Shown: positions 23,488 through 45,883 of the stretch, in pieces
How the letters are laid out: every line of letters begins with the position of its first letter
Numbering within the stretch: position 1 is the stretch's first letter
Origin: Candidatus Hydrothermarchaeales archaeon
GTDB taxonomy: Archaea > Hydrothermarchaeota > Hydrothermarchaeia > Hydrothermarchaeales > JAZGAD01
Assembly: GCA_036444275.1 (NCBI GenBank)
Contig: JAZGAD010000047.1
Location: forward strand, 1-64,000
Length of the DNA: 64,000 bases
Direction: 5' to 3'
Notes under the pieces: generated by a model
Database searches by the model: none
What the model was told of the DNA's origin: nothing
What the model saw: only the letters and a program-made list of their open reading frames with translations
Made by a program: the position numbers and the translations under genes

Positions 23488-24855
23488 ATGATAAAGGACC
23501 TTCCGGTTGATGTCGGGCTTATCTACGAAGGGGAGAGGATAAGAAAGAATTTAATGTATGTGGACCTCGCCGGGCCTAAAAGCAAGGGGGCAGAGCTTCT
23601 TAGAGTGGCACCAGCGGCGAAGGTGAAGGACACCAAGGTAAAGGTTGTCGGCCTTGATATAACTGACATGGAAGAGGGCAAAGCATATCCATTCAGCATT
23701 CTGGTGGAAGTCGCCGGCAAAACATTGGAGGAGGACTTGGAAGGAGTCTTCGAGAGACGCATTCACTATTTCCTCAACTATATACAGGGCTTCATGCACC
23801 TCAACAGCAGGGACATAATATGGTGCAGGGTTGGCAAGGATTCAGCCAAGAAGGGCATTACTCTAAAACACATAGGGCAAGCCCTCATGGACCTCTTTAA
23901 ATCCGAGTTCGACACCATAGAGAAGATACAGGTGACCTTTTACACCAGCGATAAGGAGGTAGATAAGTTTCTAGCTAAAGCGAGGAAGGTCTATGAAAAA
24001 CGCGATTCCAGGATACGCGGTCTTCGCGATGAAGACGTCGATACATTTTATGGTTGTGCCCTGTGCCAGAGTTTCGCCCCGCAGCACCTATGTACGATAA
24101 CACCGAGTAGGACATCCTCCTGCGGATCTATATCCTGGTTCGAGGGCAGAGCTGCTGCCAAGGTGGACCCGAAGGGGCCTATATTCGCTATATCCAAGGG
24201 AGAACTAATAGATGAACTAAAGGGAGAGTACTCCGGGCCAGACGAAGCGACATATGAGCGCTCCAGTGGCACTGTATCCAAGGTATATCTGCATAGCCTC
24301 TTCGATTATCCTCACACATCCTGCGGTTGCTTTGAGGCCATAGCCTTCTACATGCCTGATGTGGATGGGATAGGGATCGTATCCAGGAGCTTTAATGGAA
24401 AGACGCCCTTTGGTATACCATTCTCAACTATAGCTGGACAGGTTGGCGGCGGCTTGCAGAGCACTGGATTCGCCGGTATAGCCGTAGAGTATCTGCGCTC
24501 ACCCAAATACCTCCAAGCAGACGGCGGCTGGGAGCGAACAGTCTGGTTGCCCAAGGAACTCAAGGAGAGGATCGGCGATGACATACCAGAGCACATGAGG
24601 GATAAGATAGCCACTGAGGAGGACGCTACAGATCTAGAATCCTTAAAGAAATTCCTCCAAGAAAAAGGACATCCAGTCATTGAGCGGTGGAAAAAAGAAG
24701 CTGTCGAGGTAGAAAAAACGAGTAAGCCTGTTGAGGTATCAGAGCTTCAGGTACTTGAGGGCATGCCGCTTGATGGAAGTGGGGTAACTATCGTCTTCAA
24801 GAACGCCAAGATCTATGCTGAAAAGGTGATCATCAAGCGGAAGGGGACGAGATAA
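23488..24855 (+). CDS. cdhC: Acetyl-CoA decarbonylase/synthase beta subunit (ACS)
   Basis: EGERIRK, FYGCALCQSFAP.H.C..TP.R...CG, HTSCGCFE A-cluster ligands. Confidence 0.95.
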   Translation: MIKDLPVDVGLIYEGERIRKNLMYVDLAGPKSKGAELLRVAPAAKVKDTKVKVVGLDITDMEEGKAYPFSILVEVAGKTLEEDLEGVFERRIHYFLNYIQGFMHLNSRDIIWCRVGKDSAKKGITLKHIGQALMDLFKSEFDTIEKIQVTFYTSDKEVDKFLAKARKVYEKRDSRIRGLRDEDVDTFYGCALCQSFAPQHLCTITPSRTSSCGSISWFEGRAAAKVDPKGPIFAISKGELIDELKGEYSGPDEATYERSSGTVSKVYLHSLFDYPHTSCGCFEAIAFYMPDVDGIGIVSRSFNGKTPFGIPFSTIAGQVGGGLQSTGFAGIAVEYLRSPKYLQADGGWERTVWLPKELKERIGDDIPEHMRDKIATEEDATDLESLKKFLQEKGHPVIERWKKEAVEVEKTSKPVEVSELQVLEGMPLDGSGVTIVFKNAKIYAEKVIIKRKGTR

Positions 24856-26003
24856 TGAGGTATGATCTCGATGAACTTATCGCCTCCTTAGTTGATGCGG
24901 AAACAGTCGAACTTGAGAATGTCACTATAGATACTGAAGAACTGGTCCTTGAAATCAGGAGGCTCGCAGGAGCCCGAAGACCTCTACATCCACCTATTCT
25001 GAAGCCCGAGAGACTGAAATTCCAAGTTCCCAAGGGAGAGTACAGGGGAGAAGTAGTAGAAGTGCAGTTCGGGGCTACGAAGGGCGATGGCGGGACTAGA
25101 GGAAAGGCAATTAAGATAGGTGGACAGCGAAGCCTCTACTCCTTTGAGGATGGCATGCCAAATAGACCAGTTATCGCATATGATGTCTTCGATATGCCTA
25201 TGCCAAGCTTTGCTAAATCGCTGAGAGAGGAGTGGCAGGATGCCTGGGATACCCCAGCGGAATGGGCAAAGAAAGCTGTGAAGCTGGGTGCAGATATGAT
25301 AACCCTCCACTTAATATCAACAGATCCAGGGATCAAAGATACCTCTCCTAAGGAAGCTGCTAAAACCGTGGAGGACGTGCTGCAGGCCGTAGATGTTCCC
25401 TTGGTTATCGGGGGCTCAGGTAATCCAGAGAAGGACCCTGTGCTCTTCGAGAAGGTAGCTGAAGCTGCTGAGGGGGAGCTATGCCTACTCGCCTCTGCAA
25501 ACCTTGACTTGGATCATAAGAGGATAGTGGATGCTGCCAATAAGTACCGACACAACGTCCTATCCTGGACTTCTATGAATATAACAGACCAGCAGATGCT
25601 CAATAAACTCCTCCTCGACGAAGGGCTTCCGCAGGAGCGCATGGTCCAAGATCCCACTACAGGAGCGCTCGGCTATGGTTTGGAGTACACGTATTCCATC
25701 ATTGAAAGGCTTAAGCTCAGCGCACTTAAGGGAGAGAAGATATTGCAGAGCCCTATCTCCTGCGGTGTGACAAATGCATGGGCCGCTAGAGAAGCCTGGA
25801 TGAATGAGCCTAGCTGGGGTGCACGGGAGTACCGCGGTCCCCTGTGGGAGATAGTAACTGCAGTCACTGTGCTATTGGCAGGAGCTGACATGATGATGAT
25901 GCTTCACCCTGGAGCCGTGAAGGCTGTGAAGGATATAATAGGGGCTATATCTGGAGAATTGAAAACCGAGCCCCTAGCTTACGAGGAATGGATCGCTCTA
26001 TAG
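24855..26003 (+). CDS. cdhD: ACDS delta subunit (corrinoid Fe-S protein small subunit)
   Basis: GATKGDGGTR, GGSGNPEKD, DPTTGALGYGLEY, NAWAAREAW. Confidence 0.95.
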   Translation: MRYDLDELIASLVDAETVELENVTIDTEELVLEIRRLAGARRPLHPPILKPERLKFQVPKGEYRGEVVEVQFGATKGDGGTRGKAIKIGGQRSLYSFEDGMPNRPVIAYDVFDMPMPSFAKSLREEWQDAWDTPAEWAKKAVKLGADMITLHLISTDPGIKDTSPKEAAKTVEDVLQAVDVPLVIGGSGNPEKDPVLFEKVAEAAEGELCLLASANLDLDHKRIVDAANKYRHNVLSWTSMNITDQQMLNKLLLDEGLPQERMVQDPTTGALGYGLEYTYSIIERLKLSALKGEKILQSPISCGVTNAWAAREAWMNEPSWGAREYRGPLWEIVTAVTVLLAGADMMMMLHPGAVKAVKDIIGAISGELKTEPLAYEEWIAL

Positions 26004-26010
26004 GGGGCCT

Positions 26011-27435
26011 GTGATGGTCAAGATATCACCACTGGAGATATACAAGCTCCTCCCAGGTACCAACTGCAAAGAGTGCGGCGAGGAGAGCTGCATGGCATTT
26101 GCCTCCAAGCTCATTGAGAGAGCGAAGGGAGTGGGAGATTGCCCACCTCTTGCAGAGGATAAATATTTAGAAAAGAGGGAGAAGCTGATAGAGCTCGTTA
26201 CACCCCCGGTGAAGGAAGTAGTTGTAGGTGTTGGGGAAAGAGCAGTTGCTATCGGTGGGGAGGAAGTCATGTATCGCCATGAGCTCACCTTCTTCAACAA
26301 GACAGCCTTCTTCATAGATGTTCACGATGAGATGAGCCAAGAGGAGTTGGCAAAGAAGGTTGAAGCCATAGACAAGTTCACCTTTGGAAGGGTCGGCCAA
26401 GAGTTGAAGCTCCAGGGGGTAGCGGTTAGGGCTAAGAGCGGGGAGCCCACGAAGTTCGGCGAGGCAGTGCTAGTAGTGACTGAGAAAACCGACCTCCCTC
26501 TAATGCTCTGCTCCTATGATCCAAAGCTGCTGGAAGTGGCTCTGGAGATAGCATTGGATAGAAGGCCTCTCATCTATGCGGCGACAAAGGATAACTGGGA
26601 GCAGGTTGTGAATCTAGCCCTGAAGCATGCCTGCCCGGTAGTTGTGTCGTCGCCAGGCGACATAGAGGGATTGATTGAGCTATCACAGAACTTGATGGAG
26701 AATGGAATAGAGGATATTGTCTTGGACATAGGCACTTATCCTGACGGTGGACAGCTTAAAGCCATGGAGGAGAATCTGGTCATGCTCAGGAGATCTGCTA
26801 TAGAGGAAGAGGTAAAGCCCTTGGGATTCCCCATCTTGGGCGTGCCGATGGTAGCTGGTATGAGGGAGAAAGATCCAGTTAAGGCTGCTATGGCAGAGGT
26901 AACACTAGGTGCTTCGTTGATACTGAAATACTGCGATATCATGGTAGTTAGCTCCATGGAGGTCTGGTCCCTTTTACCACTTCTCACCATACGGCAGAAT
27001 ATCTACACGGATCCGAGGATGCCCCTCCAGGTGGAAGCAGGTCTCAAGATTCTAGGCAGCCCCGACGAGAATGCACCTGTCTTTCTCACCTCCAATTTCG
27101 CCTTGACCTATTACACTGTGGCATCTGATCTGGAGGCAGCGAAGATACCATGCTATGTATTAGTAGCTGATACAGATGGACACGCAGTGGAGGTAAGCAT
27201 GGCTGGTCAGAAGCTAACTGCAGACGTGGTCAAAAACGTTCTAGAGTCTTCTAAGGTCGCGGAAAAAGTGAAGCATAAAAAGCTCATCATTCCTGGTAGA
27301 GCATCTAGGATAAGCGGAGAGATCGAAGACGCTACGGGCTGGGAGGTAATGGTGGGTCCCATAGACTCGGCCAGAATACCAAAGTTCCTGGATGAAAAGT
27401 GGAATGGCACGGCAGTCAGTAAAGGTCGTCAATAA
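26011..27435 (+). CDS. cdhE: ACDS gamma subunit (corrinoid Fe-S protein large subunit)
   Basis: LPGTNCKECG..CMAFA...CP Fe-S motif, GGEEVMYRHE, NIYTDPR, TSNFALTY. Confidence 0.95.
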   Translation: MMVKISPLEIYKLLPGTNCKECGEESCMAFASKLIERAKGVGDCPPLAEDKYLEKREKLIELVTPPVKEVVVGVGERAVAIGGEEVMYRHELTFFNKTAFFIDVHDEMSQEELAKKVEAIDKFTFGRVGQELKLQGVAVRAKSGEPTKFGEAVLVVTEKTDLPLMLCSYDPKLLEVALEIALDRRPLIYAATKDNWEQVVNLALKHACPVVVSSPGDIEGLIELSQNLMENGIEDIVLDIGTYPDGGQLKAMEENLVMLRRSAIEEEVKPLGFPILGVPMVAGMREKDPVKAAMAEVTLGASLILKYCDIMVVSSMEVWSLLPLLTIRQNIYTDPRMPLQVEAGLKILGSPDENAPVFLTSNFALTYYTVASDLEAAKIPCYVLVADTDGHAVEVSMAGQKLTADVVKNVLESSKVAEKVKHKKLIIPGRASRISGEIEDATGWEVMVGPIDSARIPKFLDEKWNGTAVSKGRQ

Positions 27436-33118: not shown

Positions 33119-34570
33119 ATGACAGAAGCTAGTCTCTTAATAGTAGATGATGCGGAGGGTATACGGGAAACCCTCTCGGATATATTCAAGGAGAAGGGTT
33201 ACGGTACCGATGTAGCTGAGGATGGCCGGGCAGCTATAGAGAAGGTAAAGAAGAGCTTCTTTAACGTCGTGCTCCTGGATATAAGGCTACCTGATATCTT
33301 GGGTGTAGAGGTATTGGAGAGTTTGAAGGAGATACGGCCAGATATAGAAGTGATAATGATTACAGCATATGCCTCTCTTGAGACCTCTATTGAGGCACTG
33401 AATAAGGGAGCATATGCCTATATCATGAAGCCCCTTAACATGGGGGTGGTGATAGCTACCGTTAAGAAAGCCCTGGAGAAACAGCGCCTATCCGCAGAGA
33501 ACATGTGGTTAACGGAATTCAACGAACGCATTATAAAGAATGCACCGATTGGGATCTTAACCACCGATGAAAAGGGCGATATAACGAGTGCGAATCCAGC
33601 TATTCTTGAGATTCTGGATAGCTTGGAGACGGAAAAATTGATTGGGCTTAGCGTATTAACCCTCCCAACCAGTAGGGCAATGGGCTTAGATAAGGAACTC
33701 AAGAAAGTATTGTCTGAGGGAAAGGAGATAGAGCTAGCGGGGAAGTATGTTTCTGAATCTGGAGCAGATGTTTTTCTCCATATCAGAAGCACCCCATTGA
33801 GAAACGAAAAAAGAGACATAACAGGGCTCCTAGCGATAATCGAGGACGTAACTGAGAGAAAGAAGCTTGACAGCATGAAGGATGCGTTTATCTCCAATGT
33901 CTCGCATGAGTTGAGGACTCCCCTTACATCTATCCTCACTTCTCTGGAGCTTCTTTCAAAGGAAACTGTAGAGAAGGAGAAGCGTAAGCTCTTGGAAATC
34001 TGTGATAGGAATGCTTTGAGGCTAAATCGATTGGTGGACAATCTATTGGAAGTCAGCCGGATTGAAGTAGAGACATTAGATGTTCGGACACTCGACGTTA
34101 CTCGGGTAGTGGCAGAGATAATATCAGAGCTGCAGGATTTTGCCGTTGTGAGTAAAGTTACGCTAAAATCCCTTATCGAGGATGAGTTCCTCGTAAGGGC
34201 CGATAAAAAATCACTACGGCTTGTCTTCCTGAATCTGATCAGCAATGCCATCAAGTTTAATAAAGAAGGGGGTAAGGTAACGATATCCGGCGAGCGGGAG
34301 GATTCATTTACCAGGTTCTGCGTAGAGGATACAGGCATAGGCATTCCAAGAGGAGATTTGAAAGAAATATTCAAGAGTTTCTACCAAATCGATGCAAGCA
34401 TAAGGCGCAGGTACCCTGGAGCTGGTGTTGGTCTAACTATAACGAAAAACATAGTAGACGCCCATGGAGGCAAGATATGGGCTGAGAGCAAGCCCGGTAA
34501 AGGAAGCAAGTTCTGTTTCACTCTACCCTCTGGAAGTAGAACCGGGAAGAAGATAAAAGAGGTAGGATAA
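33119..34570 (+). CDS. Cytoplasmic hybrid kinase REC-PAS-HisKA-HATPase
   Basis: LIVDD...LLDIRLP...MITAY...KP receiver; PAS (GILTTD.KG.I..AN); SHELRTPL H-box, NLISNAIKF, DTGIG, GAGVGL. Confidence 0.92.
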   Translation: MTEASLLIVDDAEGIRETLSDIFKEKGYGTDVAEDGRAAIEKVKKSFFNVVLLDIRLPDILGVEVLESLKEIRPDIEVIMITAYASLETSIEALNKGAYAYIMKPLNMGVVIATVKKALEKQRLSAENMWLTEFNERIIKNAPIGILTTDEKGDITSANPAILEILDSLETEKLIGLSVLTLPTSRAMGLDKELKKVLSEGKEIELAGKYVSESGADVFLHIRSTPLRNEKRDITGLLAIIEDVTERKKLDSMKDAFISNVSHELRTPLTSILTSLELLSKETVEKEKRKLLEICDRNALRLNRLVDNLLEVSRIEVETLDVRTLDVTRVVAEIISELQDFAVVSKVTLKSLIEDEFLVRADKKSLRLVFLNLISNAIKFNKEGGKVTISGEREDSFTRFCVEDTGIGIPRGDLKEIFKSFYQIDASIRRRYPGAGVGLTITKNIVDAHGGKIWAESKPGKGSKFCFTLPSGSRTGKKIKEVG

Positions 34571-34706: not shown

Positions 34707-35381
34707 CTATACCTCTTTCCCCTCTGCCAATTCTTCCAGCTCCAACGGGTGCTCATGTTCCATTTGTTCTTTACTCAGTGTTCCAGTTATCCATTGCTTT
34801 GCCATTGGAAATATATCTGGATTCAAAATCGCCGCGTATAAATGTACGACTATTACAACAGAAAATGCCAAGATGGCCTCCCACCCATGTATCAACCAAG
34901 CATAATTGACGAACTGTAGCGGTAGGACTTCCAAGGTCATATCGAATGTGAACCACATCATAAGTCCTGTTACAACTACTATGAGAGAACCAACAGCTCC
35001 GGCCCAGTAATCGAACTTCTGCTCCCAGGTATACCTCCCCATTTTTGGCATTTCGTCGGTCATCCGTAAATTGTATTTGATGTGGTGTATAGCGTCATCG
35101 AAATCTTTCCTTTGCGGCATTATGTCCTTCTTTCCTCTGTCGATCATGGTGTAATATATCACATGTATAAGGCCTGTACCGATGAATACTACTGCAGCAA
35201 TTTGATGATATAAACCTCTATTAGCCGGACCCCCAAGCAAGTCAACTATACTCTGTGCCCAGGATGTGTGGGCGTATTTCAATGGGAATCCCGTCAATGC
35301 CAAGATGAAAAACGATAAAGCCCAAAGGACGTGTTGTATCCTCTGAAAGACGGTAAATCTTAAGAATTCTTCTTCGGTCAT
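34707..35381 (-). CDS. Di-heme cytochrome b membrane subunit (FdnI/Ni-hydrogenase cyt b type)
   Basis: RF...QRIQH, LTGFP, LYHQ, LIH, GRYTWEQKFDYWA, LIHGWEA...VHLY; four TM helices. Confidence 0.85.
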   Translation of the reverse strand: MTEEEFLRFTVFQRIQHVLWALSFFILALTGFPLKYAHTSWAQSIVDLLGGPANRGLYHQIAAVVFIGTGLIHVIYYTMIDRGKKDIMPQRKDFDDAIHHIKYNLRMTDEMPKMGRYTWEQKFDYWAGAVGSLIVVVTGLMMWFTFDMTLEVLPLQFVNYAWLIHGWEAILAFSVVIVVHLYAAILNPDIFPMAKQWITGTLSKEQMEHEHPLELEELAEGKEV

Positions 35382-35947
35382 TTCGCACGCCCCCCTTTCC
35401 TACTCTTACCTAACCTCCGACTAAAGTCCAATATCTCAAAGACTACGAAGAATCCTAGCACCGCGGAGATAAGTGTTTTATAGAAGAAGTTTATCAGCCC
35501 ATTCACGGAGATTGGGCCTAGAGAGTATATATCGCTTCCATGCATCGATCCCTTGCCGGCATTGGCCAATTTAACATCATGACAATCTTCCCTCGCGCAT
35601 ATATCAGGTCTATTCTTAGGATTAGTGGGTGAATTTGGATCGCTCTGCGGAAGGAAATACATCCAGTCCACCATGCCGTGGCAATCCGTACAAGTTGGGA
35701 CACCCTCTTTTCCGAGGGCAGCCGCTTTACCATGAGGGGACTCTTGGTACGTCTTGTTCGCATATTCAAAGGTATATGCAAGGTTATACCTCGTCTTAGC
35801 CTCAGAAGGTAGGGGGCTCTTCCATCCCTCACTCCTGTATTTCTCCATGTCCCTCTTCTGGACTTCCTGAGCCTCCACGACATGGCTCAGGGATATGAAG
35901 CCTAAAAGGAAGAGTATTAGAACCCCGCCCTTTACCAACTCTCTCAT
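35378..35947 (-). CDS. Membrane-anchored small c-type cytochrome (CXXCH + CX4CH)
   Basis: Signal peptide, SPHG...PTCTDCHG, CAREDCH, C-terminal TM helix; ATGA coupling to cytochrome b. Confidence 0.78.
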   Translation of the reverse strand: MRELVKGGVLILFLLGFISLSHVVEAQEVQKRDMEKYRSEGWKSPLPSEAKTRYNLAYTFEYANKTYQESPHGKAAALGKEGVPTCTDCHGMVDWMYFLPQSDPNSPTNPKNRPDICAREDCHDVKLANAGKGSMHGSDIYSLGPISVNGLINFFYKTLISAVLGFFVVFEILDFSRRLGKSRKGGRAK

Positions 35948-35974
35948 TGGTCCTGTTCTCCTTGTAAAATTTTA

Positions 35975-37474
35975 TTATTCATGCAGACGCGGAGGTTCGA
36001 GGTATTCTTGGAGTACCCAAGGCGAAACGTGGTTGTGGCATCCGTTGCATGAGTTGGGCTGCACATTCCAGAGCAGATCGTCCAGGGTTTTTCCTGCGGA
36101 CATAGCTTCTCGGGCTTTTTTCTTGAGCAGCTCTTCCACTTGGGTCGTGTTAAGGCCTTCTACATCTTTAGCCTCGAGGCCGTAGAAACCCAGGACGGTG
36201 TTATCCTTCTTCGCGGCTTTGTCAACTAGGAGTTTTATGCTGACCTCTGGTTTAATGACCTTGAACCTGTGGCTCCTAATATCTCCGGGGTTAATGTTCT
36301 TTGCAGTCGGGGGCATATGGCAGCCGACGCAGTTCCCGAAGTCGTGGATAGTATGGCTCAACCCAGCGAGGCCTGGAACCCTCCTCGGCTCACCGTGGCA
36401 GGCTTTGCACAGCGCAGTGCCTGCTAGCTTGGTCTCGAACCTGCCTTCACCTTTAGAGTGAACGGTGTGGCAGTCCCAACAGGTTATTCCTGCCTTCGCA
36501 TGCTCACTTATCTGCCAATCTGGATACTGTTGGTGGTGTGATTTGGAGTCTCCACTCGGCCAGAAGCGTTTTGGTGTATCTTTTTCGCGTGTAACAGGAT
36601 CGTACAGGGGTATCAAGTTCATACCGGGTTTGTAGCCAACGGGATATCCGTATTTCGCATCGAGGGTAGAATGACCTCGGGTGTGGCATGAGCCACAAAC
36701 CATGACCCCTATATCTGTTTGTGGGATCTTTGCTGGGTTTACGATCGTATCCTTCTTGTAGGGGGTATCGGCCAATATGTGGTTGCTCCCCGGTCCGTGG
36801 CAAGCTTCACATCTGGCTCCGTTATCTATCCAAGTTGAGGCATAGGTATCCGTGACTTCATCGTAGTTTATTTGAAAGCCTGTTGTATGGCAACCAGCGC
36901 ATTTATACTGCCAGATCCTTCCCTTGCTGCTCCAATAATTTTTGGGATCATCATAATCATATTTCTCCAGCCCATGGTAGTCTTGCCACTTCTGTTCCCT
37001 AATATTCCATTGAACAGGGAGTATATGGAATTCTCCATTGTCGAACTTCGTGAGATATCTCTGCTTCCAGGCACTACCGATGGTATAGAGCACTTCGTAG
37101 ATGTGCTCTTCTCCATCAGGACCGATAGTAGTTATATAATATTTTCCGTCCTCTGTCGACATCGTGGTGTTCTTATCCTTAACGGTCAATTCGTTGTTCT
37201 TGACAAAATCGCCGAGGACGACGTTTTCGCCGATTTCCTGTATTTTATATGGATGCAGTGTCGTTTTCCAACCGGCGTAAGTTCTCTCGTGGCATTGCTT
37301 ACATTGAACAGAACCGACGTAAGTAGCCCCCTCAGTGGTGGTTGGCTTTTCTTCTCCTATTCTAAATCGTTCTAAGAAGCTGAATCCAGGCGTTAAGGTT
37401 ATAAATGCAATCGTTACTACTACAAACGCGGCTACAAGCAACCGCGAGATTCTTTTTCTCTCCTCTTGCTGCAT
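35975..37474 (-). CDS. Octaheme c-type cytochrome (c554-like N-terminus), N-terminal membrane anchor
   Basis: Eight CXXCH: CKQCH, CAGCH, CEACH, CGSCH, CWDCH, CKACH, CVGCH, CNGCH; YVGS..C..CH...Y..W....H; CEACHGPGSNH. Confidence 0.9.
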   Translation of the reverse strand: MQQEERKRISRLLVAAFVVVTIAFITLTPGFSFLERFRIGEEKPTTTEGATYVGSVQCKQCHERTYAGWKTTLHPYKIQEIGENVVLGDFVKNNELTVKDKNTTMSTEDGKYYITTIGPDGEEHIYEVLYTIGSAWKQRYLTKFDNGEFHILPVQWNIREQKWQDYHGLEKYDYDDPKNYWSSKGRIWQYKCAGCHTTGFQINYDEVTDTYASTWIDNGARCEACHGPGSNHILADTPYKKDTIVNPAKIPQTDIGVMVCGSCHTRGHSTLDAKYGYPVGYKPGMNLIPLYDPVTREKDTPKRFWPSGDSKSHHQQYPDWQISEHAKAGITCWDCHTVHSKGEGRFETKLAGTALCKACHGEPRRVPGLAGLSHTIHDFGNCVGCHMPPTAKNINPGDIRSHRFKVIKPEVSIKLLVDKAAKKDNTVLGFYGLEAKDVEGLNTTQVEELLKKKAREAMSAGKTLDDLLWNVQPNSCNGCHNHVSPWVLQEYLEPPRLHE

Positions 37475-38810: not shown

Positions 38811-41351
38811 ATGATTGTGAGGTCCAAAAGTCGATATGAAATACCGAAAATGGAGAAAATGGATTGGATGAACAAAGAACAACAAAAAGCGGCGCTCATT
38901 TTGGTAGTGGCATTTATTGGTAGTGCACTTACAGTAAACGGAACGCTTACAGCGGCGGAAGAAAAATATAGTACGATATTAAGCGCTGTGAGAACAAACG
39001 AAACGATAATCATAGATGGGCAGTTAAAGGAGTCTTCATGGAATGAGACAAAGACACTGATCATCCCAGTGGTGGATGGAAAGGTCGGGGATGTAGATGT
39101 GGAGATGAAGGCATTATACGATACTGACTATATCTACATGTACATCGTATGGCCTGATCCGACCCAAAGCGATGCTTTATTCTGGGGATATAATGGCACT
39201 GCTTGGAACCCCCCAAATAAAAATACAGAGGATATTTTCACGATCTTCTGGAATATAAGGGACTCGGTTGAGGGATATGATATAGCTGGATGCGCCATTA
39301 CTTGCCACGCAAATAGGATGCATACCAATACCCCCGAAGAAAGACTCGATTACTGGAAATGGAAGGCAGAGAAAGGCAACCCCTCCGGCTATATGTGGGA
39401 TGGATTCCTAGACGATATCGTGGTTATCGGGGAGAAGATATATCCCGGTTTTTCTAGGACCTTTATGATCGAGAAGGCATGGCATTCACACAAGCTAGAT
39501 GAAACATCGGGTGACTATGTGGAGGAGAGAAAGAACGCGATTATCGATGAGAGAGGCAATTTCATTGGGCCGAGATATTATGAACCTGACGCAAGGGGCG
39601 AAGATGCGAAACACATCACGATGGAGGAGATCCTTAGGGACGAGGCCGTGGAATTTTTGAATTTAACAAAACTGAACGATGGAAGAGAGATCTCGATCGG
39701 CTTCAAAGTGCCTGTATACATCTCCGAAAAACCGACAGGAAGTGCTAGAGATATAAGCGCCAAAGGGGTTTATTATGACGGGAAGTGGCATCTGGAATTC
39801 AAGAGAAAATTGCAGACCGGGCACGACGACGATGTCCTGTTCGATATCGCGAAGACCTATCGTTTCAGCATAGCTGTGAATGACGATTCTCACGGATCCG
39901 CCAACGAGGGTTATGGCCAAGGACACAGCATAAGCATGCTGGCGCGAACCCTAGAATTTGGCGGGATTGGTTCTGAAGAGATAACCCAACTGGCACTAAT
40001 CCGCGATTATCTTCAGACCGCCAAGGCATATACCGGGCGCGGGGAATCGGGAATGGCGCTTTCAGAGGTCGATCATGCGTTGGCGATTTTCAATGCGATC
40101 AGGGGAGCAGTCGCCGACGAAGACCCAGAACTCTACATGGACATTAGAAAGAGATTTGTAGAGGCCAAGAGGAATCCCTCGATCGATAACCTTGATGTCG
40201 TGCTTCAAGGCATCGAGGTTGCTACATTAACTTTGCAGGGAAAGAGAGAGCCGCCAGAAGCGCCGTGGAATGTAAAGCTCCTAGTTCTCTGGGGGAGCGT
40301 ACAACTTTACGTCTTTGTCTTTATATCGATATTTGTTCTCTATCCCCTCTACAAAACGATACAAACAACTAGAATACCGGAAATGCGCTATTTCGGCATC
40401 TTCCTATTTATAGTCATCCTCCCCCTATTTCTTGAAGGCGTTGGGAGGTTTGGGGTCCTTTTCAAGATCAGATTTTTGCAGAACTTCAGTTTCACAACAA
40501 ATGAATACATAACCTTGCTCTGGGCGATAGGCATGTTCATAGCCTTGCTCATAGCCAAAGTTGGATTCACCGAAATAGATGAGACCATTCGCTCATTAAA
40601 ATATTACAGCGCTGAAGTCGAAACTAAGATGGAGGAGTTGAGAAAATCGCAAGAGCAACTGGTCAAGTCAGAGAGGATGGCTTCCATAGGGCAACTGGCA
40701 GCGAGTGTTGGCCACGAGTTGAGAAATCCTCTTGGAGTGATCAAGAACGTGAGCTACTATCTCAGCATGGCCCTAGCCGAGAAAGATGAAAAGGTGAAGA
40801 AGCACTTAAATATCCTAGAAAGGGAACTAGATACCTCCAACAAAATCATCACCGACTTATTGGACTTTTCACGGGGGGAGATAGAACCCACTTTTGGGGA
40901 AGCCAACATCAATGCGATCCTTAAGGATACATTGGCCAGGGCATCGGTACCTGACAATGTCAAAGTGGAAACTTATCTGGCCGATTTACCCTCAATGAGA
41001 GTAGATGGAGAGCAATTACAGCGGGTGTTCTTGAATATGATTTCAAACGCTGTTCATGCGATGCCCGATGGTGGTAAATTGATTATCAGAACCAAAAGTA
41101 AGGGCAACTCCGTAGAGATAGAGTTCGAGGACACCGGCAAAGGGATTTCGAAAGAGGATATAAAGAAGATCTTCGAACCGCTCTTTACCACTAAGGCAAA
41201 AGGGATTGGGTTGGGGTTAGCGATCTGTAAACAAATCATCGATGGGCATGGGGGCACCATCGATGCGGTGAGCGCTGTAGACCAGGGGGCAACTTTTATC
41301 ATCAAACTACCCGTGATGGAAGTAGAGGAAGATGAAGAAAAGGAAAACTAG
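38811..41351 (+). CDS. Membrane sensor histidine kinase with extracellular EB_dh/DOMON-like heme-binding domain (CX3CH)
   Basis: N-terminal TM; IDG....W, MKALYD.DYIY....WPDPT, GCAITCH, DYWKWK, W.LEFKRKL.TG.DDD; three TMs; GHELRNPL, N-box, DTGKG, GIGLGL. Confidence 0.85.
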   Translation: MIVRSKSRYEIPKMEKMDWMNKEQQKAALILVVAFIGSALTVNGTLTAAEEKYSTILSAVRTNETIIIDGQLKESSWNETKTLIIPVVDGKVGDVDVEMKALYDTDYIYMYIVWPDPTQSDALFWGYNGTAWNPPNKNTEDIFTIFWNIRDSVEGYDIAGCAITCHANRMHTNTPEERLDYWKWKAEKGNPSGYMWDGFLDDIVVIGEKIYPGFSRTFMIEKAWHSHKLDETSGDYVEERKNAIIDERGNFIGPRYYEPDARGEDAKHITMEEILRDEAVEFLNLTKLNDGREISIGFKVPVYISEKPTGSARDISAKGVYYDGKWHLEFKRKLQTGHDDDVLFDIAKTYRFSIAVNDDSHGSANEGYGQGHSISMLARTLEFGGIGSEEITQLALIRDYLQTAKAYTGRGESGMALSEVDHALAIFNAIRGAVADEDPELYMDIRKRFVEAKRNPSIDNLDVVLQGIEVATLTLQGKREPPEAPWNVKLLVLWGSVQLYVFVFISIFVLYPLYKTIQTTRIPEMRYFGIFLFIVILPLFLEGVGRFGVLFKIRFLQNFSFTTNEYITLLWAIGMFIALLIAKVGFTEIDETIRSLKYYSAEVETKMEELRKSQEQLVKSERMASIGQLAASVGHELRNPLGVIKNVSYYLSMALAEKDEKVKKHLNILERELDTSNKIITDLLDFSRGEIEPTFGEANINAILKDTLARASVPDNVKVETYLADLPSMRVDGEQLQRVFLNMISNAVHAMPDGGKLIIRTKSKGNSVEIEFEDTGKGISKEDIKKIFEPLFTTKAKGIGLGLAICKQIIDGHGGTIDAVSAVDQGATFIIKLPVMEVEEDEEKEN

Positions 41352-41706
41352 CATTTTGGTAGTAGATGACGATATAGGCACGTGTGAAACCTTGGCCGAT
41401 ATTCTGACTGCGAAAGGATATAATGTAACTACTGCAGAGAGCGGAATTGAAGCGGTTGAGAAACTCAAGGGGGAGCTCTTCAAAGTTATCCTCATGGATA
41501 TAAAGATGATGGGAATAAACGGCATAGAGACAATTAGGGAGATCAAGAAGATAGTATATCCTGAGGTGGCGATAATTATGATGACGGCCTACGTCGCCGA
41601 GGCCCTCGTAACAGAAGCTTTGAGGGAAGGGGCATATGCCGTTGTCTACAAACCTTTGGATATTGAGAGGATAATAAAGCTCATTGAAAGTGCAACAGTT
41701 AAGTAG
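41332..41706 (+). CDS. Stand-alone response regulator receiver
   Basis: LVVDDD, LMDIKM, MTAY, KP; no output domain. Confidence 0.92.
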   Translation: MKKRKTSILVVDDDIGTCETLADILTAKGYNVTTAESGIEAVEKLKGELFKVILMDIKMMGINGIETIREIKKIVYPEVAIIMMTAYVAEALVTEALREGAYAVVYKPLDIERIIKLIESATVK

Positions 41707-41765
41707 GATACAAATGGCCGTTACATTATGTAAATGTGAGATATTTAGGGAGAAGATGACTCGGA

Positions 41766-43403
41766 ATGTCCGAAGAAAGCAGCATCTTGATAATTGACGA
41801 TGATAAAGGGATGCGCGAGACCCTTACAGACATACTCCAGGTGAAGGGCTACAAGACGGAGAGCGCAAAGGACGGAGAAGCGGCCTTGGATAAGCTGAAG
41901 GAGAAGTCCTTCAATGTAGCGCTCGTCGACATAAAGCTCCCGGATATTTCAGGCACAGAGGTATTGAAAAAACTCAAAGAGATTCAGCCGGATACGATAG
42001 TGATCATGATCACTGCTTTCGCTTCTCTCAATACTTCGATTAAGGCTTTGAAAGAGGGGGCATATGGCTATATCATGAAACCCTTGAATATGGATGAATT
42101 ATTCGCTACCATCGGAGAAGGTCTCGAGAAACAGCGGTTGCAAAAAGAATTAAAAAAGTACTCTGAGCAACTGGAAGAGATGGTGAAAGCTAGGACTGAG
42201 GAATTACAGAATGCCTATGAAGAACTCAAAGGCCTCGCCATCGAGAGAGCCCGTAATATCGAAGTAATACAAGAGCAATCGAGGGAACTCAAGGAAGCTA
42301 AGGACTTCTTGGATAACGTGATAGACAGTAGCGCTGACGCGATAATCACTACTGGGTTGGACGGTACGATAACCTCTTTTAGCAGGGGTGCTGAGGAGCT
42401 CTATAAATACAAGGCTAAAGAGGTTATAGGCAAGCCGGCCCTCTCCCTTTACCCAAAGGAGCTTCGAGAAGAGAGGAGGGCTGGGTTGGATACGCTTCTT
42501 AAGGGCGAGACTATACGGAATATGAGAACCAGGATATACAATGCCGATGGAGAGCTTGTAGATATAAGTCTCTCTCTTTCCCGGCTCAGAGATATCTCCG
42601 GAAAGGCTATTGGTACTGTCGGAGTCTCAAAGGATATATCCAAGGAGATAGAGGGAGAAAAACGTCTGACGGAGGCATATGAGAGGCTTGTCGAATTGGA
42701 TAAGATGAAGGACGAGTTCCTATCCAATATTTCACATGAGCTACGCACACCTATAACCTCGATTGTGACCTCCCTAGAGTTATTAGAGGAAGAAAGTCTA
42801 CCGGGGGAGAGGGAGAAACTTCTGGAGGTATCTAAGAGGAATGTTTGGAGGCTGGATAATCTCGTCGGCAACCTACTGGAGTTCAGCCGCTTAGGAACGC
42901 AGAAGCTGCAAATGCAACCATTGAACGCAAGTGTGCTGGTTCGTGAGCTTATAGCTGAAATGGAGAACTTTGCGGCAAGCAATGAAGTGGAGGTTAAGTC
43001 CTTTCTAAAGGAAGAAACCATGATCATGGCTGATAAAAAGTTCGTAGGGCCTATATTCGGGAATCTCATTGGCAATGCCATAAAATTCAATAAGCGGGGG
43101 GGCAAGGTTAGGGTATCGGCGGAGGAAGAGAATTCGTGGATAAAGTTTTGCGTAGAAGATACCGGTGTAGGAATCCCCAAAGAAGGCTTGGACAAGGTAT
43201 TCGATAGATTCTACCAGATCGATGCAAGCATCAGACGCAGGTACCCAGGCACAGGCTTAGGGCTGACCATAGCCAAGGAGATGGTGGAGCGCCAGGGAGG
43301 CATGATATGGGCTGAAAGCGAATTGGGAAAGGGTAGCAGGTTCTATTTCACTCTGCCCTCGGAACCTAGAACTAGAACCAGAAAAAAGATAAACGAGAAA
43401 TGA
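41766..43403 (+). CDS. Cytoplasmic hybrid kinase REC-coiled coil-PAS-HisKA-HATPase
   Basis: IIDDD...LVDIKLP; DAIITTGLDGTITSFSRGAEELY PAS; SHELRTPI; GTGLGL; paralog of 33119-34570. Confidence 0.92.
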   Translation: MSEESSILIIDDDKGMRETLTDILQVKGYKTESAKDGEAALDKLKEKSFNVALVDIKLPDISGTEVLKKLKEIQPDTIVIMITAFASLNTSIKALKEGAYGYIMKPLNMDELFATIGEGLEKQRLQKELKKYSEQLEEMVKARTEELQNAYEELKGLAIERARNIEVIQEQSRELKEAKDFLDNVIDSSADAIITTGLDGTITSFSRGAEELYKYKAKEVIGKPALSLYPKELREERRAGLDTLLKGETIRNMRTRIYNADGELVDISLSLSRLRDISGKAIGTVGVSKDISKEIEGEKRLTEAYERLVELDKMKDEFLSNISHELRTPITSIVTSLELLEEESLPGEREKLLEVSKRNVWRLDNLVGNLLEFSRLGTQKLQMQPLNASVLVRELIAEMENFAASNEVEVKSFLKEETMIMADKKFVGPIFGNLIGNAIKFNKRGGKVRVSAEEENSWIKFCVEDTGVGIPKEGLDKVFDRFYQIDASIRRRYPGTGLGLTIAKEMVERQGGMIWAESELGKGSRFYFTLPSEPRTRTRKKINEK

Positions 43404-43432
43404 CAACAAGGTATTGGAAGGGCTGTTAAGGA

Positions 43433-45883
43433 ATGCAAAGGAGAGCGAGGGACTTTTATCAATTAAGCTTGTTTAGTAGGGCTAAACGTAAGGATACGGC
43501 TATTTACATACCTAAAATTATACTTATAGTGATAATACTCGCTAGTTTTGCAGTTGTAGCAGGAGAGGTAGTGGAAAGACAGAGCACCATTTTGACAGCT
43601 GAGAGGGTCACTGAGCCGGTCGAGGTAGATGGGCTAGCTACTGAGAGTGCTTGGGATAGCGCGAGGCCGCTGGTGGTCACGGTCCAAGATGGTAGTATAG
43701 GGAGGATAGACGTATACCTCAAGGCATTATACGATTCTGACTACATCTACATCTATGCCACGTGGCCTGATCCAACTGAGAGTGTTAGTAAGCGTATGTG
43801 GGGCTTCAATGGCATAAACTGGTCTTTTTCTGACGACGAAGACAGATTTTCGGTCTTCTGGAATATAGACGATTCCGTCAAGGGCTTCAATGTCGGTGGT
43901 TGTGCGATGCTCTGTCACGGTGATAGGATGCATGCTAATGCAGAGGGTGAGAAGGCTGACTCTTGGCACTGGAAGAGCAGTAGAACCAATCCAGTTGGTT
44001 ATGCAGACGACAAATACGTAGACTCCCACGTTGTGCCTTACGAGGGTGGAGAGAAAATGGTAGGTCGCCATGGAGACCAAGCAGTCAGCGGGGGTTACAT
44101 GCGTAACATCAATGACGAGGGCACTAAGCCACTCTACTATGAGCCCTTGCCTGAGGATGAGTTGGATGCCTTGTTCCTATTGGAGGAGGAAGTCGAGGAT
44201 GGTGAGGCAGTATTGTTGGATGAGGCGGAGCTTAAGTCGGGTATAGTTGTACCTGGTTATATCCTTAGTAAGCCAAGTGGCAGCAGAGGCGACATCGATT
44301 CTAAAGGTGTATGGCAAAACGAGAGGTGGGCTGTGGAGTTTCGTAGGAAGCTTGTGACTGGGCACGATGATGATGTCCAGTTTGATACTAGTAGGACGTA
44401 TCGTTTTGGTATAGCTGTGATGGACAATACGGGTGGCTTTGAGGGCTTCGGAAAGGGTCATAGCTTTGACTTGGGTGCCAGGACGCTTGAGTTCGGCGGC
44501 ATTGGGAGCGAAGAGGTGACTCAGTTGGTCTTGATACGGGACTACCTAGTTACTGCCAAAGCACATGTTAGAGATGGAAAACCAGGATTGGCACTTTCAG
44601 AAGCCAACGATGGTCTCACATTGTACAACGAGATCCGCGACGAGGTTGCAGACGTGGATCCAGAGCTCTACATAACTATAAAAAATGCATTCGTGGATTC
44701 TGTGAGGAATCCCACACTAAGCAATATAGACATCCTGATAAGAAACATCGACGATGTTGTGCTAACTTTCCAGGGAAAGAGGCAACCAGCTGAACCGACG
44801 TGGAATCTAAAGCTCCTCATCGCATGGGGGCGGATACAGCTCTATGTGTTCGTCGTGCTCTCAATACTTGTAACATACCCCATCTATAAGACAGTAAAGA
44901 CGAGCGCGAGACCAGAATTACGCCATCTGAGTCTCTTCTTGCTGATAGTAATGGCTCCGATATTCCTCGAGGGAGTGGGCCGCTTTGGTGTTCTTGCTAA
45001 GATTCATTTTCTGCAGAAGTTCAGTTTCACGACAAATGAATATATAACAATGATATGGGCGATAGGCATGTTCATAGCTTTGTATGTCGCTAAGATAGGA
45101 TTCAACGAAGTAGATGATACCATCAAGTCGCTGGGTTACTACAGCACTGAACTCGAGACCAAGATGGAGGAGCTGAGGAAATCACAGGCAAAACTTTTAG
45201 GAGCAGAGAAATTGGCTTCTATAGGGCAGCTGACTGCAAGCATCGGGCATGAGCTGCGTAATCCGTTGGGCGTGATTAAGAACATAAGCTACTATCTCGA
45301 CATGAAATTAGGCGATAGGGATGAAAAAATTAAGAAACATCTGCGGCTCTTGGATGAGGAGCTTGTCAGGTCAAATGAGATAATAAGCGATCTTTTGGAC
45401 TTCTCTAGGGGTATAGAGCCGACTCTTCACGATGTTGACATCAATCCAGTCGTGGGGGAAGCCCTATTGAGAGCCACGATACCAGGTAACATCGAAGTGA
45501 GCACAAATTTTGAGGATGCATCACCTAAGGTCTCCGTGGATAGCGAGCATATAGTGAGGGTATTTATGAATATAATCTCGAATGCAGTTCAGGCGATGCC
45601 AGAAGGTGGGAGTTTAAGGATAAGAACAGTGAAAAAGGATGATTTCATAGGAATAGAGATCACGGACACAGGCGTTGGAATCCCGAAAGAAGATGTAGGG
45701 AAAGTCTTTGAACCTTTATTTAGTACGAAGGCGAAGGGGATAGGCCTGGGCCTAGCCATTAGTAGGCAGATCATAGAGAGACATGGCGGTAGCATTGAAG
45801 TAGAGAGCGTCCTAGATAGTGGGACTACATTTATTGTAAAACTCCCGATAAAAAGGAGTCAGGGCGATGAAGGGGAAGACTAG
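43433..45883 (+). CDS. Second membrane sensor histidine kinase with EB_dh/DOMON-like heme-binding domain (CX3CH)
   Basis: VDG....AW, LKALYD.DYIY...WPDPT, GCAMLCH, DSWHWK, WAVEFRRKL.TGHDDD; three TMs; GHELRNPL; paralog of 38811-41351. Confidence 0.85.
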   Translation: MQRRARDFYQLSLFSRAKRKDTAIYIPKIILIVIILASFAVVAGEVVERQSTILTAERVTEPVEVDGLATESAWDSARPLVVTVQDGSIGRIDVYLKALYDSDYIYIYATWPDPTESVSKRMWGFNGINWSFSDDEDRFSVFWNIDDSVKGFNVGGCAMLCHGDRMHANAEGEKADSWHWKSSRTNPVGYADDKYVDSHVVPYEGGEKMVGRHGDQAVSGGYMRNINDEGTKPLYYEPLPEDELDALFLLEEEVEDGEAVLLDEAELKSGIVVPGYILSKPSGSRGDIDSKGVWQNERWAVEFRRKLVTGHDDDVQFDTSRTYRFGIAVMDNTGGFEGFGKGHSFDLGARTLEFGGIGSEEVTQLVLIRDYLVTAKAHVRDGKPGLALSEANDGLTLYNEIRDEVADVDPELYITIKNAFVDSVRNPTLSNIDILIRNIDDVVLTFQGKRQPAEPTWNLKLLIAWGRIQLYVFVVLSILVTYPIYKTVKTSARPELRHLSLFLLIVMAPIFLEGVGRFGVLAKIHFLQKFSFTTNEYITMIWAIGMFIALYVAKIGFNEVDDTIKSLGYYSTELETKMEELRKSQAKLLGAEKLASIGQLTASIGHELRNPLGVIKNISYYLDMKLGDRDEKIKKHLRLLDEELVRSNEIISDLLDFSRGIEPTLHDVDINPVVGEALLRATIPGNIEVSTNFEDASPKVSVDSEHIVRVFMNIISNAVQAMPEGGSLRIRTVKKDDFIGIEITDTGVGIPKEDVGKVFEPLFSTKAKGIGLGLAISRQIIERHGGSIEVESVLDSGTTFIVKLPIKRSQGDEGED

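Follow-up and report, generated by a model that had tools for sequence, protein, structure and literature searches.

Two paralogous membrane histidine kinases with a putative haem-c-binding EB_dh/DOMON-fold ectodomain in a Hydrothermarchaeales archaeon

The window analyzed here, 64,000 nucleotides of contig JAZGAD010000047.1 (C47) from the 1.49-Mb, 81%-complete genome of a Candidatus Hydrothermarchaeales archaeon (GCA_036444275.1), contains two genes for membrane sensor kinases, designated HK1 and HK2, which a first-pass annotation made from the sequence had described as histidine kinases with an extracellular haem domain carrying a C-x3-C-H (CX3CH) motif. The DNA is archaeal: the window encodes TFIIB, fibrillarin, Nop, and the CdhC and CdhD subunits of acetyl-CoA synthase, and the nearest named homologues of HK1 and HK2 came from Candidatus Hydrothermarchaeales and related metagenome-assembled genomes. 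The two proteins were 54% identical over 795 residues. In the Pfam searches that the annotation had proposed as a check, EB_dh, HisKA, and HATPase_c all scored above their cut-offs in both proteins, with 94.7 bits (HK1) and 111.6 bits (HK2) for EB_dh (cut-off 33.3), 45.1 and 40.4 bits for HisKA (cut-off 26.9), and 93 and 94 bits for HATPase_c (cut-off 26.4). A DOMON match for HK1 was below threshold (16.5 vs. 32.7). The H, N, G1, and G2 boxes were intact in both kinases (HELRNP, N..SNA, D.G.G, and G.G.GL). Judged by these matches, HK1 and HK2 are paralogous membrane histidine kinases, and they accounted for both of the EB_dh matches in the whole genome.

The hydropathy scan found in each protein a single hydrophobic segment near the N-terminus and another three beyond residue 490 (HK1) or 460 (HK2). 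Since an N-terminal anchor is followed by three later transmembrane segments (TMs), the EB_dh domain would lie outside the cell and the kinase inside, and this hydropathy topology predicts that the CX3CH motif is on the extracytoplasmic side. The motif, CAITCH in HK1 and CAMLCH in HK2, contains the sole cysteines of each ectodomain and is followed downstream by RMH and then W.WK. All of the anatomy that the first-pass annotation had read from the sequence was recovered in place: the two open reading frames (ORFs) with their N-terminal TM or signal (ORF list, hydropathy), the motifs at 39291-39308 and 43901-43918 with RMH and W.WK, and the three TMs with intact HisKA and HATPase domains (hydropathy, Pfam, boxes). 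Its helical bundle of about 95 aa corresponds to four ecto-helices of about 87 residues in the AlphaFold2 ectodomain model described below.

The translation start of HK2 differs between sources. The public gene call (P0151, 784 aa) starts at 43529, 32 codons after the ATG at 43433, and such a late start would drop a basic stretch and half of the hydrophobic anchor. The longer form was favored because it has the basic stretch and a 19-residue hydrophobic segment, as an exported or anchored protein needs; a start at 43433 is therefore the more likely one. The orthologues of HK1 in the related loci L018 and L019 start near HK1 residues 17-20.

The HK2 ectodomain was searched against 1.84 billion cluster representatives, which yielded 1315 matches with E-values of at most 0.001, of which 144 were at or below 1e-30. 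The annotation had made its case depend on the conservation of the Cys and His residues among homologues, and C-x3-C-H was indeed present in 144 of the 150 best representatives. Among the six without it, two were fragments whose match begins past the motif (P0019, P0030), two had lost the first Cys and kept the second Cys and the His, as if for a single-thioether haem (P0049, P0104), and two had no part of CX3CH (P0100, P0107). The motif was also found in 75 of 81 further sensor clusters, and the remaining six cover just 31-57% of the query. Shorter and more distant stand-alone relatives of at least 280 aa carried it in 28 of 44 cases, while in the alignment the other 16 lack the entire segment comprising a short helix, CX3CH, and the following Met loop. 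Since the motif-less relatives are without the whole segment, the attachment element appears to be an insertion into the beta-sandwich. In the HK2 model, the first Cys occupies the final turn of the short helix (ecto residues 108-115), with Cys-His following it; a helix-end Cys followed by Cys-His is the usual cytochrome c geometry. On these counts, CX3CH is a family character beyond chance. The Ccm system of E. coli matures CX3CH variants. PMC11492766 lists CX3CH among the rare described haem-c motifs. Other CX3CH-containing ORFs of the genome (contigs C30, C15, and C12) proved to be unrelated to the kinases.

The ectodomain of HK2 (residues 45-460) was modelled with AlphaFold2 from an alignment of 61 sequences, with a mean predicted local distance difference test score (pLDDT) of 94.8 and a predicted template modelling score (pTM) of 0.91. 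In the model, ecto residues 9-310 form a beta-sandwich and residues 316-402 fold into four helices. Foldseek returned eight matches in the PDB at E 0.001 or better, the best of which was NxrC of Kuenenia (7b04, two chains; 7b04_C, E 1.4e-11). EbdC of ethylbenzene dehydrogenase (EBDH) was also found (2ivf_C, E 3.8e-9, template modelling score 0.74 on the target), together with five chains of CBM9-type carbohydrate binders (1i82_A, E 5.6e-6; 7nwo, E 5.7e-5). No haem-c-bearing solved structure was among the matches of the ectodomain fold. A PDB profile search with alignment A1 was dominated by kinase domains; the ectodomain-only alignment A2 was used instead and matched NxrC at E 1.1e-18 and EbdC at E 1.3e-5. 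The EB_dh/DOMON-like assignment of the annotation thus agrees with both the Pfam scores and the best structural matches, and the family marks it had quoted (KALYD..IY...W.D, D.WHWK, and W..E..R.L.TG..DD) are conserved columns of the family alignment. A prediction of the HK2 ectodomain homodimer with haem scored 0.14 against a mark of 0.42, which weighs neither for nor against binding. Assignment of the proteins as the gamma subunit of a type II dimethyl sulfoxide reductase-family enzyme was rejected (TIGR03477, 17.0/17.5 bits vs. a cut-off of 169.85), and no gene for a molybdenum-enzyme alpha or beta subunit was present among the ORFs scanned, which covered 20-49 kb of the window.

The haem b of NxrC is ligated by Met155 and Lys305, as in EBDH, according to PMC8387239. 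In the profile alignment, the family's W-H-W-K strand is anchored to residues 158-170 of NxrC. A conserved Met (M166 of HK2; M170 of HK1, within RMH) falls about 2 positions from NxrC Met155, and a conserved distal His (H343 of HK2; H372 of HK1) shares a loop with NxrC Lys305, about 5 profile positions away. In alignment A1, the Met position is M in 44/61 sequences, K in 5/61, and H in 3/61 (52/61 together), and the distal position is H in 54/61 and K in 3/61 (57/61 together). In the sensor forms, the Met is replaced by His or Lys only. The spacing from the motif His to the Met is four residues in the sensors (H162/M166) and up to about 30 in stand-alone forms. Three residues of haem-ligand type would therefore surround one presumed haem, and the axial pair might be H162/H343, with the Met spare or switchable, or another combination.

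The capacity for haem-c maturation was present in the genome, with one match to CcmE (PF03100) and four to PF01578 (CcmC/CcmF type), and ten ORFs carried three or more CXXCH motifs. One of these multihaem ORFs ends at position 8755 of contig C48 (-) and is open at the contig end; with at least 2918 aa, 38 CXXCH, one CX3CH, and three CX4CH motifs, it probably encodes a very large extracellular multihaem cytochrome. The CcmC/F-type match beside CcmE (C37:3942-5233, -, locus L006/L007) contains an in-frame TAG, where relatives have TAG, TGA, or TAA; this is more likely the boundary of two genes than recoding.

Beyond this genome, the sandwich, the four helices, and the three TMs are conserved together as one unit with the marks EFGG.GSEE, LEGxGR (inside TM3), and QNFSFTT, and the four-helix ecto-bundle is restricted to sensor forms. 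This ecto-plus-TM unit is joined to HisKA, HisKA_3 (with or without PAS and GAF), GGDEF, HD_5 (HD-GYP type), and DUF835, and further to hybrid kinases with REC, to a GerE-type helix-turn-helix (HTH), or to a coiled coil alone; HATPase_c was counted by hand in 75 of 100 listed sensor homologues. Its named sources include Hydrothermarchaeales, Thermoplasmata, Thermodesulfobacteriota, Desulfuromonas, Desulfobacterales, and Candidatus Magnetoovum. By these homologues, the sensor type is also present in bacteria of the Desulfobacterota and Nitrospirota and is not specific to archaea. Eight proteins of about 620-665 aa (P0155, P0159, P0205, P0011, P0213, P0220, P0222, and P0223) have the full sensor unit, a coiled-coil tail, and no catalytic output, and may rely on a partner protein for signalling. 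Far commoner is the sandwich by itself, occurring as stand-alone exported proteins (including one of a cultured Vibrio, P0281), in tandem arrays, and in fusions to class I or multihaem cytochromes c (for example, P0029, P0031, P0111, P0116, P0130, and P0142). Since the stand-alone and cytochrome-fused forms prevail, this distribution points to electron transfer as the ancestral role of the domain. Some homologues gave weak CBM9_1 Pfam matches, and the only label for the family in the ESM Atlas and public annotation was 'ethylbenzene dehydrogenase-related protein'.

The features of the locus are listed in Table 1. Because a REC-only gene overlaps the end of each kinase gene, the receiver is the likely cognate partner, and each kinase is likely paired with its own; the overlap of HK1 and receiver genes was also present in locus L019. 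Two similar soluble REC-PAS-HisKA-HATPase_c proteins (33119-34570 and 41766-43403, both +) flank the sensor cluster, an arrangement more suggestive of a multistep relay than of plain two-component pairs. In the full-length model, TM4 of HK2 continues as a long helix into the DHp domain.

Table 1. Coordinates of HK1, HK2, their parts, and neighboring genes in the window
Feature	Position	Strand	Basis and remarks
Cytochrome b561-type membrane protein	34707-35381	-	ORF, Pfam
189-aa ORF, no Pfam family	35378-35947	-	ORF, Pfam
Eight-CXXCH cytochrome c, 499 aa	35975-37474	-	ORF, Pfam
HK1 sensor histidine kinase	38811-41351	+	846 aa as longest ORF
HK1 N-terminal hydrophobic segment (residues 28-46), signal anchor or TM1	38892-38948	+	Kyte-Doolittle scan
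HK1 EB_dh/DOMON-fold ectodomain (residues 82-362)	39054-39896	+	Pfam E 1.1e-26, 94.7 bits
HK1 CAITCH (C161, C165, H166), putative haem-c site	39291-39308	+	Motif position, family conservation
HK1 TM2-TM4 (residues about 491-585), with conserved LEGxGR and QNFSFTT	40281-40565	+	Hydropathy, conservation
HK1 kinase core: HisKA (627-690, H-box HELRNP, H635), HATPase_c (732-835; N, G1, G2 boxes)	40689-41315	+	Pfam
Single-domain receiver protein, 124 aa	41332-41706	+	ORF, Pfam; start overlaps HK1 end by 20 nt
REC-PAS-HisKA-HATPase_c hybrid kinase, 545 aa, between HK1 and HK2	41766-43403	+	Pfam
HK2 sensor histidine kinase, 816 aa from ATG at 43433	43433-45883	+	ORF, Pfam
HK2 N-terminal hydrophobic segment (residues 29-47), basic stretch before it	43517-43573	+	Hydropathy
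HK2 EB_dh/DOMON-fold ectodomain (residues 76-333)	43658-44431	+	Pfam E 8.1e-32, 111.6 bits; model; Foldseek
HK2 CAMLCH (C157, C161, H162), putative haem-c site	43901-43918	+	Motif position, model, family conservation
HK2 M166	43928-43930	+	Conserved Met position near NxrC Met155
HK2 H343	44459-44461	+	Conserved His, same loop as NxrC Lys305
HK2 four-helix ecto-bundle (residues about 360-446), preceded by invariant EFGG.GSEE	44510-44770	+	Model, alignment
HK2 TM2-TM4 (residues about 462-556)	44816-45100	+	Hydropathy, full-length model
HK2 kinase core: HisKA (598-659, H606), HATPase_c (703-807)	45224-45853	+	Pfam
Single-domain receiver protein, 121 aa	45867-46232	+	ORF, Pfam; start overlaps HK2 end by 17 nt

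A row of cytochrome genes runs divergently from HK1, 1.3 kb upstream, and a Band 7 gene is also found in the upstream divergent stretch. The row (34707-37474) looks like a membrane-to-outside electron-transfer module and is, by position only, a candidate redox partner or regulated target of the sensors. Sixteen related loci were gathered with the closer alignment A3, with flanks as fetched, and cytochrome c genes were found in the flanks of five of them, in three unrelated arrangements. Loci L018 and L019 are syntenic with the window, including the cytochrome row beside the HK1 orthologue. In the archaeal loci L011 (3586-6077) and L013 (8750-11266), the sensor gene is followed by genes for a REC-winged HTH (DUF7347) regulator and two pentahaem cytochromes; this layout offers the best clue to the targets that such sensors control. 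Directly upstream of the sensor gene in L021 (Desulfobacterales) are genes for three cytochromes: a cytochrome b, a class I cytochrome with eight haems, and a monohaem cytochrome. As background, the share of the genome's bases no more than 6 kb away from an ORF with at least three CXXCH motifs was 6.1%. Orthology between the cytochrome neighbors of the archaeal and Desulfobacterales loci was considered and rejected, since BLASTP similarity was at the CXXCH level only. Elsewhere in the window, genes for acetyl-CoA synthase/CO dehydrogenase (CdhC and two CdhD-type; 23488-27435, +) fit a Wood-Ljungdahl-type carbon metabolism. A search of sequencing runs listed partial DNA datasets and no RNA dataset for the locus.

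The annotation had proposed a covalent haem c on the outer face. This proposal was strengthened by the conservation of CX3CH, its nature as an insertion, the haem-type fold, the Ccm genes, and the cytochrome fusions, which together stop short of proof, and it is quite probable that the ectodomain binds haem c. In the mechanism we propose, the sensing unit consists of the N-terminal anchor, the extracytoplasmic EB_dh/DOMON sandwich, the four-helix ecto-bundle, and the three TMs leading into the DHp helix, and HK1 and HK2 would each be translationally coupled to their own single-domain receiver. The archaeal Ccm system would attach one haem c to CX3CH on the outer face by two thioether bonds, with the motif His as the proximal ligand and either His343, in the loop that gives the Lys in EbdC and NxrC, or Met166 as the sixth ligand. 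The oxidation state of the haem iron would be set by cytochromes in the extracellular or surface-layer (S-layer) space or by soluble redox-active compounds. A change in oxidation or ligation would then shift the ectodomain and the TM bundle, thereby changing autophosphorylation at H635 (HK1) or H606 (HK2) and altering phosphotransfer to the receiver. Both the signal and the output are what we infer. For the whole mechanism, in which HK1 and HK2 act as extracytoplasmic haem-c redox sensors coupled to CheY-like receivers, we put the probability at roughly 0.6.

Several observations weigh against this redox-sensor mechanism. Haem binding is deduced from sequence and from a model that contains no haem. 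Both Cys and the His were invariant in 61/61 sequences of alignment A1, whose rows were picked after the motif list was known, so that this figure arose partly by selection and 144/150 is the fair measure of conservation. The full-length model, built from 29 sequences, had a pLDDT of 75.5 and a pTM of 0.46, and the motif region was below 50. The match of M166 and H343 to the ligands of EbdC and NxrC came from local hidden Markov model alignments that skip a loop and are offset by 2-5 positions. For H162 and M166, which are four residues apart, to ligate one haem from its two sides would impose strain, and we know of no precedent for an axial ligand pair with this spacing. Of the 38 genomes of the phylum, 37 had a Ccm marker and 11 had the sensor (10 of 21 genera); because Ccm is nearly universal there, the co-occurrence of the two has no discriminating weight. 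The cytochromes of the different neighborhood arrangements are not orthologous, and the associations are therefore three independent ones. Three of the 16 related loci are on contigs of at most 3.6 kb, so that the absence of cytochrome genes there means little. No DNA-binding regulator was found in the window.

A haem c might instead sense a gas or an anion (NO, O2, CO, or sulfide) that displaces a weak sixth ligand, for example Met166, and so switches the kinase. The nearest analogue, the haem-c Cache family, lends this some support, since its signalling members bind NO according to a preprint (PMC12889525). In the sensors, the Met position is filled by M, K, or H, as would fit a tunable, replaceable ligand, and 11 of the 16 sensor loci have no cytochrome gene in their flanks. 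However, nothing pointing to NO, O2, or CO metabolism was found in the window or the related loci, both likely axial positions hold strong ligands, suggesting a six-coordinate haem, and the domain occurs mostly stand-alone or fused to cytochromes, which fits electron transfer. We therefore consider gas or anion sensing unlikely.

The identity of the cofactor can also be questioned. If haem b were held noncovalently by the Met and His/Lys residues, the two Cys would serve as a disulfide or thiol redox switch or as a metal site. In the closest structures, Met and Lys ligate a haem b, the family keeps Met (44/61) and His/Lys (57/61) near those ligand positions, and, according to PMC11492766, CX3CH is a rare haem-c motif. 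Yet conservation of the motif His equals that of both Cys, and the motif accompanies CXXCH-rich fusions. The placement of the first Cys at a helix end, with Cys-His next, resembles that in classical cytochromes c. Where the motif decays, the first Cys is lost and CH is kept (P0049, P0104), unlike what a disulfide would leave; loss of the first Cys with CH retained is the pattern of single-thioether cytochromes c. Noncovalent haem b is thus quite improbable. The structural matches to CBM9 proteins (1i82_A, E 5.6e-6; 7nwo, E 5.7e-5) are significant, some homologues have weak CBM9_1 matches in Pfam, and motif-less relatives exist (16/44), all of which would suit a haem-free DOMON/CBM9-like module that binds carbohydrates or surfaces and serves to detect a ligand of the cell envelope or a polymer. 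Against such a module, haem-binding members of the fold match better, and HK1 and HK2 carry the full set of CX3CH, Met, and His, which is absent as a block from the motif-less relatives. This explanation is hardly credible for HK1 and HK2.

How mineral-, electrode-, or partner-respiring microbes sense outside conditions is largely open, and the extracytoplasmic haem sensors known so far share a single fold (Cache) and hardly occur in archaea. If the redox-sensor mechanism is true, a second, independent ligand-binding fold was made into a haem-c receptor by a short attachment insertion, and CX3CH would be the attachment site by which a large haem-c branch of the EB_dh family is defined. It would also provide a defined input for archaeal two-component systems, whose signals are mostly unknown, and a means of testing how extracellular electron-transfer cytochromes are regulated in Hydrothermarchaeota, Desulfobacterota, and their relatives. 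As a wider and still tentative proposal, which we regard as possible but doubtful, the combination of EB_dh-haem c, four-helix bundle, and three TMs may be an undescribed widespread receptor that reads extracellular redox potential (from the cytochrome network or from mineral or soluble acceptors) in anaerobic archaea and bacteria and is coupled to phosphorelay, c-di-GMP, and other outputs controlling extracellular electron-transfer genes. The sensor variant joins two known kinds, the haem-based sensors and the EB_dh haem domain, and is widespread and unstudied.

Histidine kinases under haem control include FixL, DosS/DosT, and MsmS of Methanosarcina, in which the haem is in a cytoplasmic PAS or GAF domain. 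In HK1 and HK2, by contrast, the haem would sit outside, in a different fold, and would arrive by the cytochrome c maturation route. With EbdC (2IVF chain C) and NxrC (7B04 chain C), HK1 and HK2 share the EB_dh sandwich and Pfam family as well as conserved Met and basic or His residues near the haem-ligand positions. EbdC and NxrC, however, hold a noncovalent haem b and, as electron-transfer subunits, dock on an Fe-S subunit, whereas HK1 and HK2 have an extra helix with C-x3-C-H and are fused to a transmembrane kinase.

The annotation knew of no characterized kinase with this architecture, and in this respect the literature agreed: no paper on an EB_dh/DOMON haem kinase or receptor was found in full texts, a search that did not extend to supplements or to the DOMON survey of Iyer et al. 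(2007). As a motif, however, CX3CH had already been noticed in EbdC-like electron carriers. One of them is NirB of P. stutzeri, which we take to be the dihaem cytochrome c-552. In PMC3884062 (2013), Dsui_0143 and Dsui_1177 of Azospira suillum are described as EbdC-like proteins with one CXXCH and one atypical CWXXCH, both motifs being kept in NirB, and the authors read the atypical CWXXCH (that is, C-x3-C-H) of PF09459 proteins as a haem-c site. Their reference for NirB is Jüngst et al. (1991), the title of which names mono-, di-, and tetrahaem proteins. Compared by description, Dsui_0143, Dsui_1177, and NirB differ from HK1 and HK2 in being soluble carriers with an additional CXXCH domain and no signalling output.

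The closest functional analogue of HK1 and HK2 is the family of haem-c Cache sensors, sCache_haem (DUF3365/Tll0287; Geobacter GSU0582 and GSU0935), which shares the logic of an extracytoplasmic ligand-binding fold with an acquired haem-c helix. The 2026 preprint (PMC12889525) likewise describes that family as a fold with an inserted attachment element. Roughly half of its members occur alone or joined to cytochromes; the others, including the NO-binding members, carry histidine kinase, methyl-accepting chemotaxis protein, or GGDEF modules (PMC12889525; PMC3460858). The two families differ in that sCache_haem combines a Cache fold with CXXCH, whereas the family of HK1 and HK2 combines a DOMON/EB_dh sandwich with CX3CH. 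They differ also in distribution: by the count of the preprint (PMC12889525), archaea all but lack sCache_haem, which occurs in one archaeal RefSeq genome, whereas the family of HK1 and HK2 is common in one archaeal phylum (11/38 genomes).

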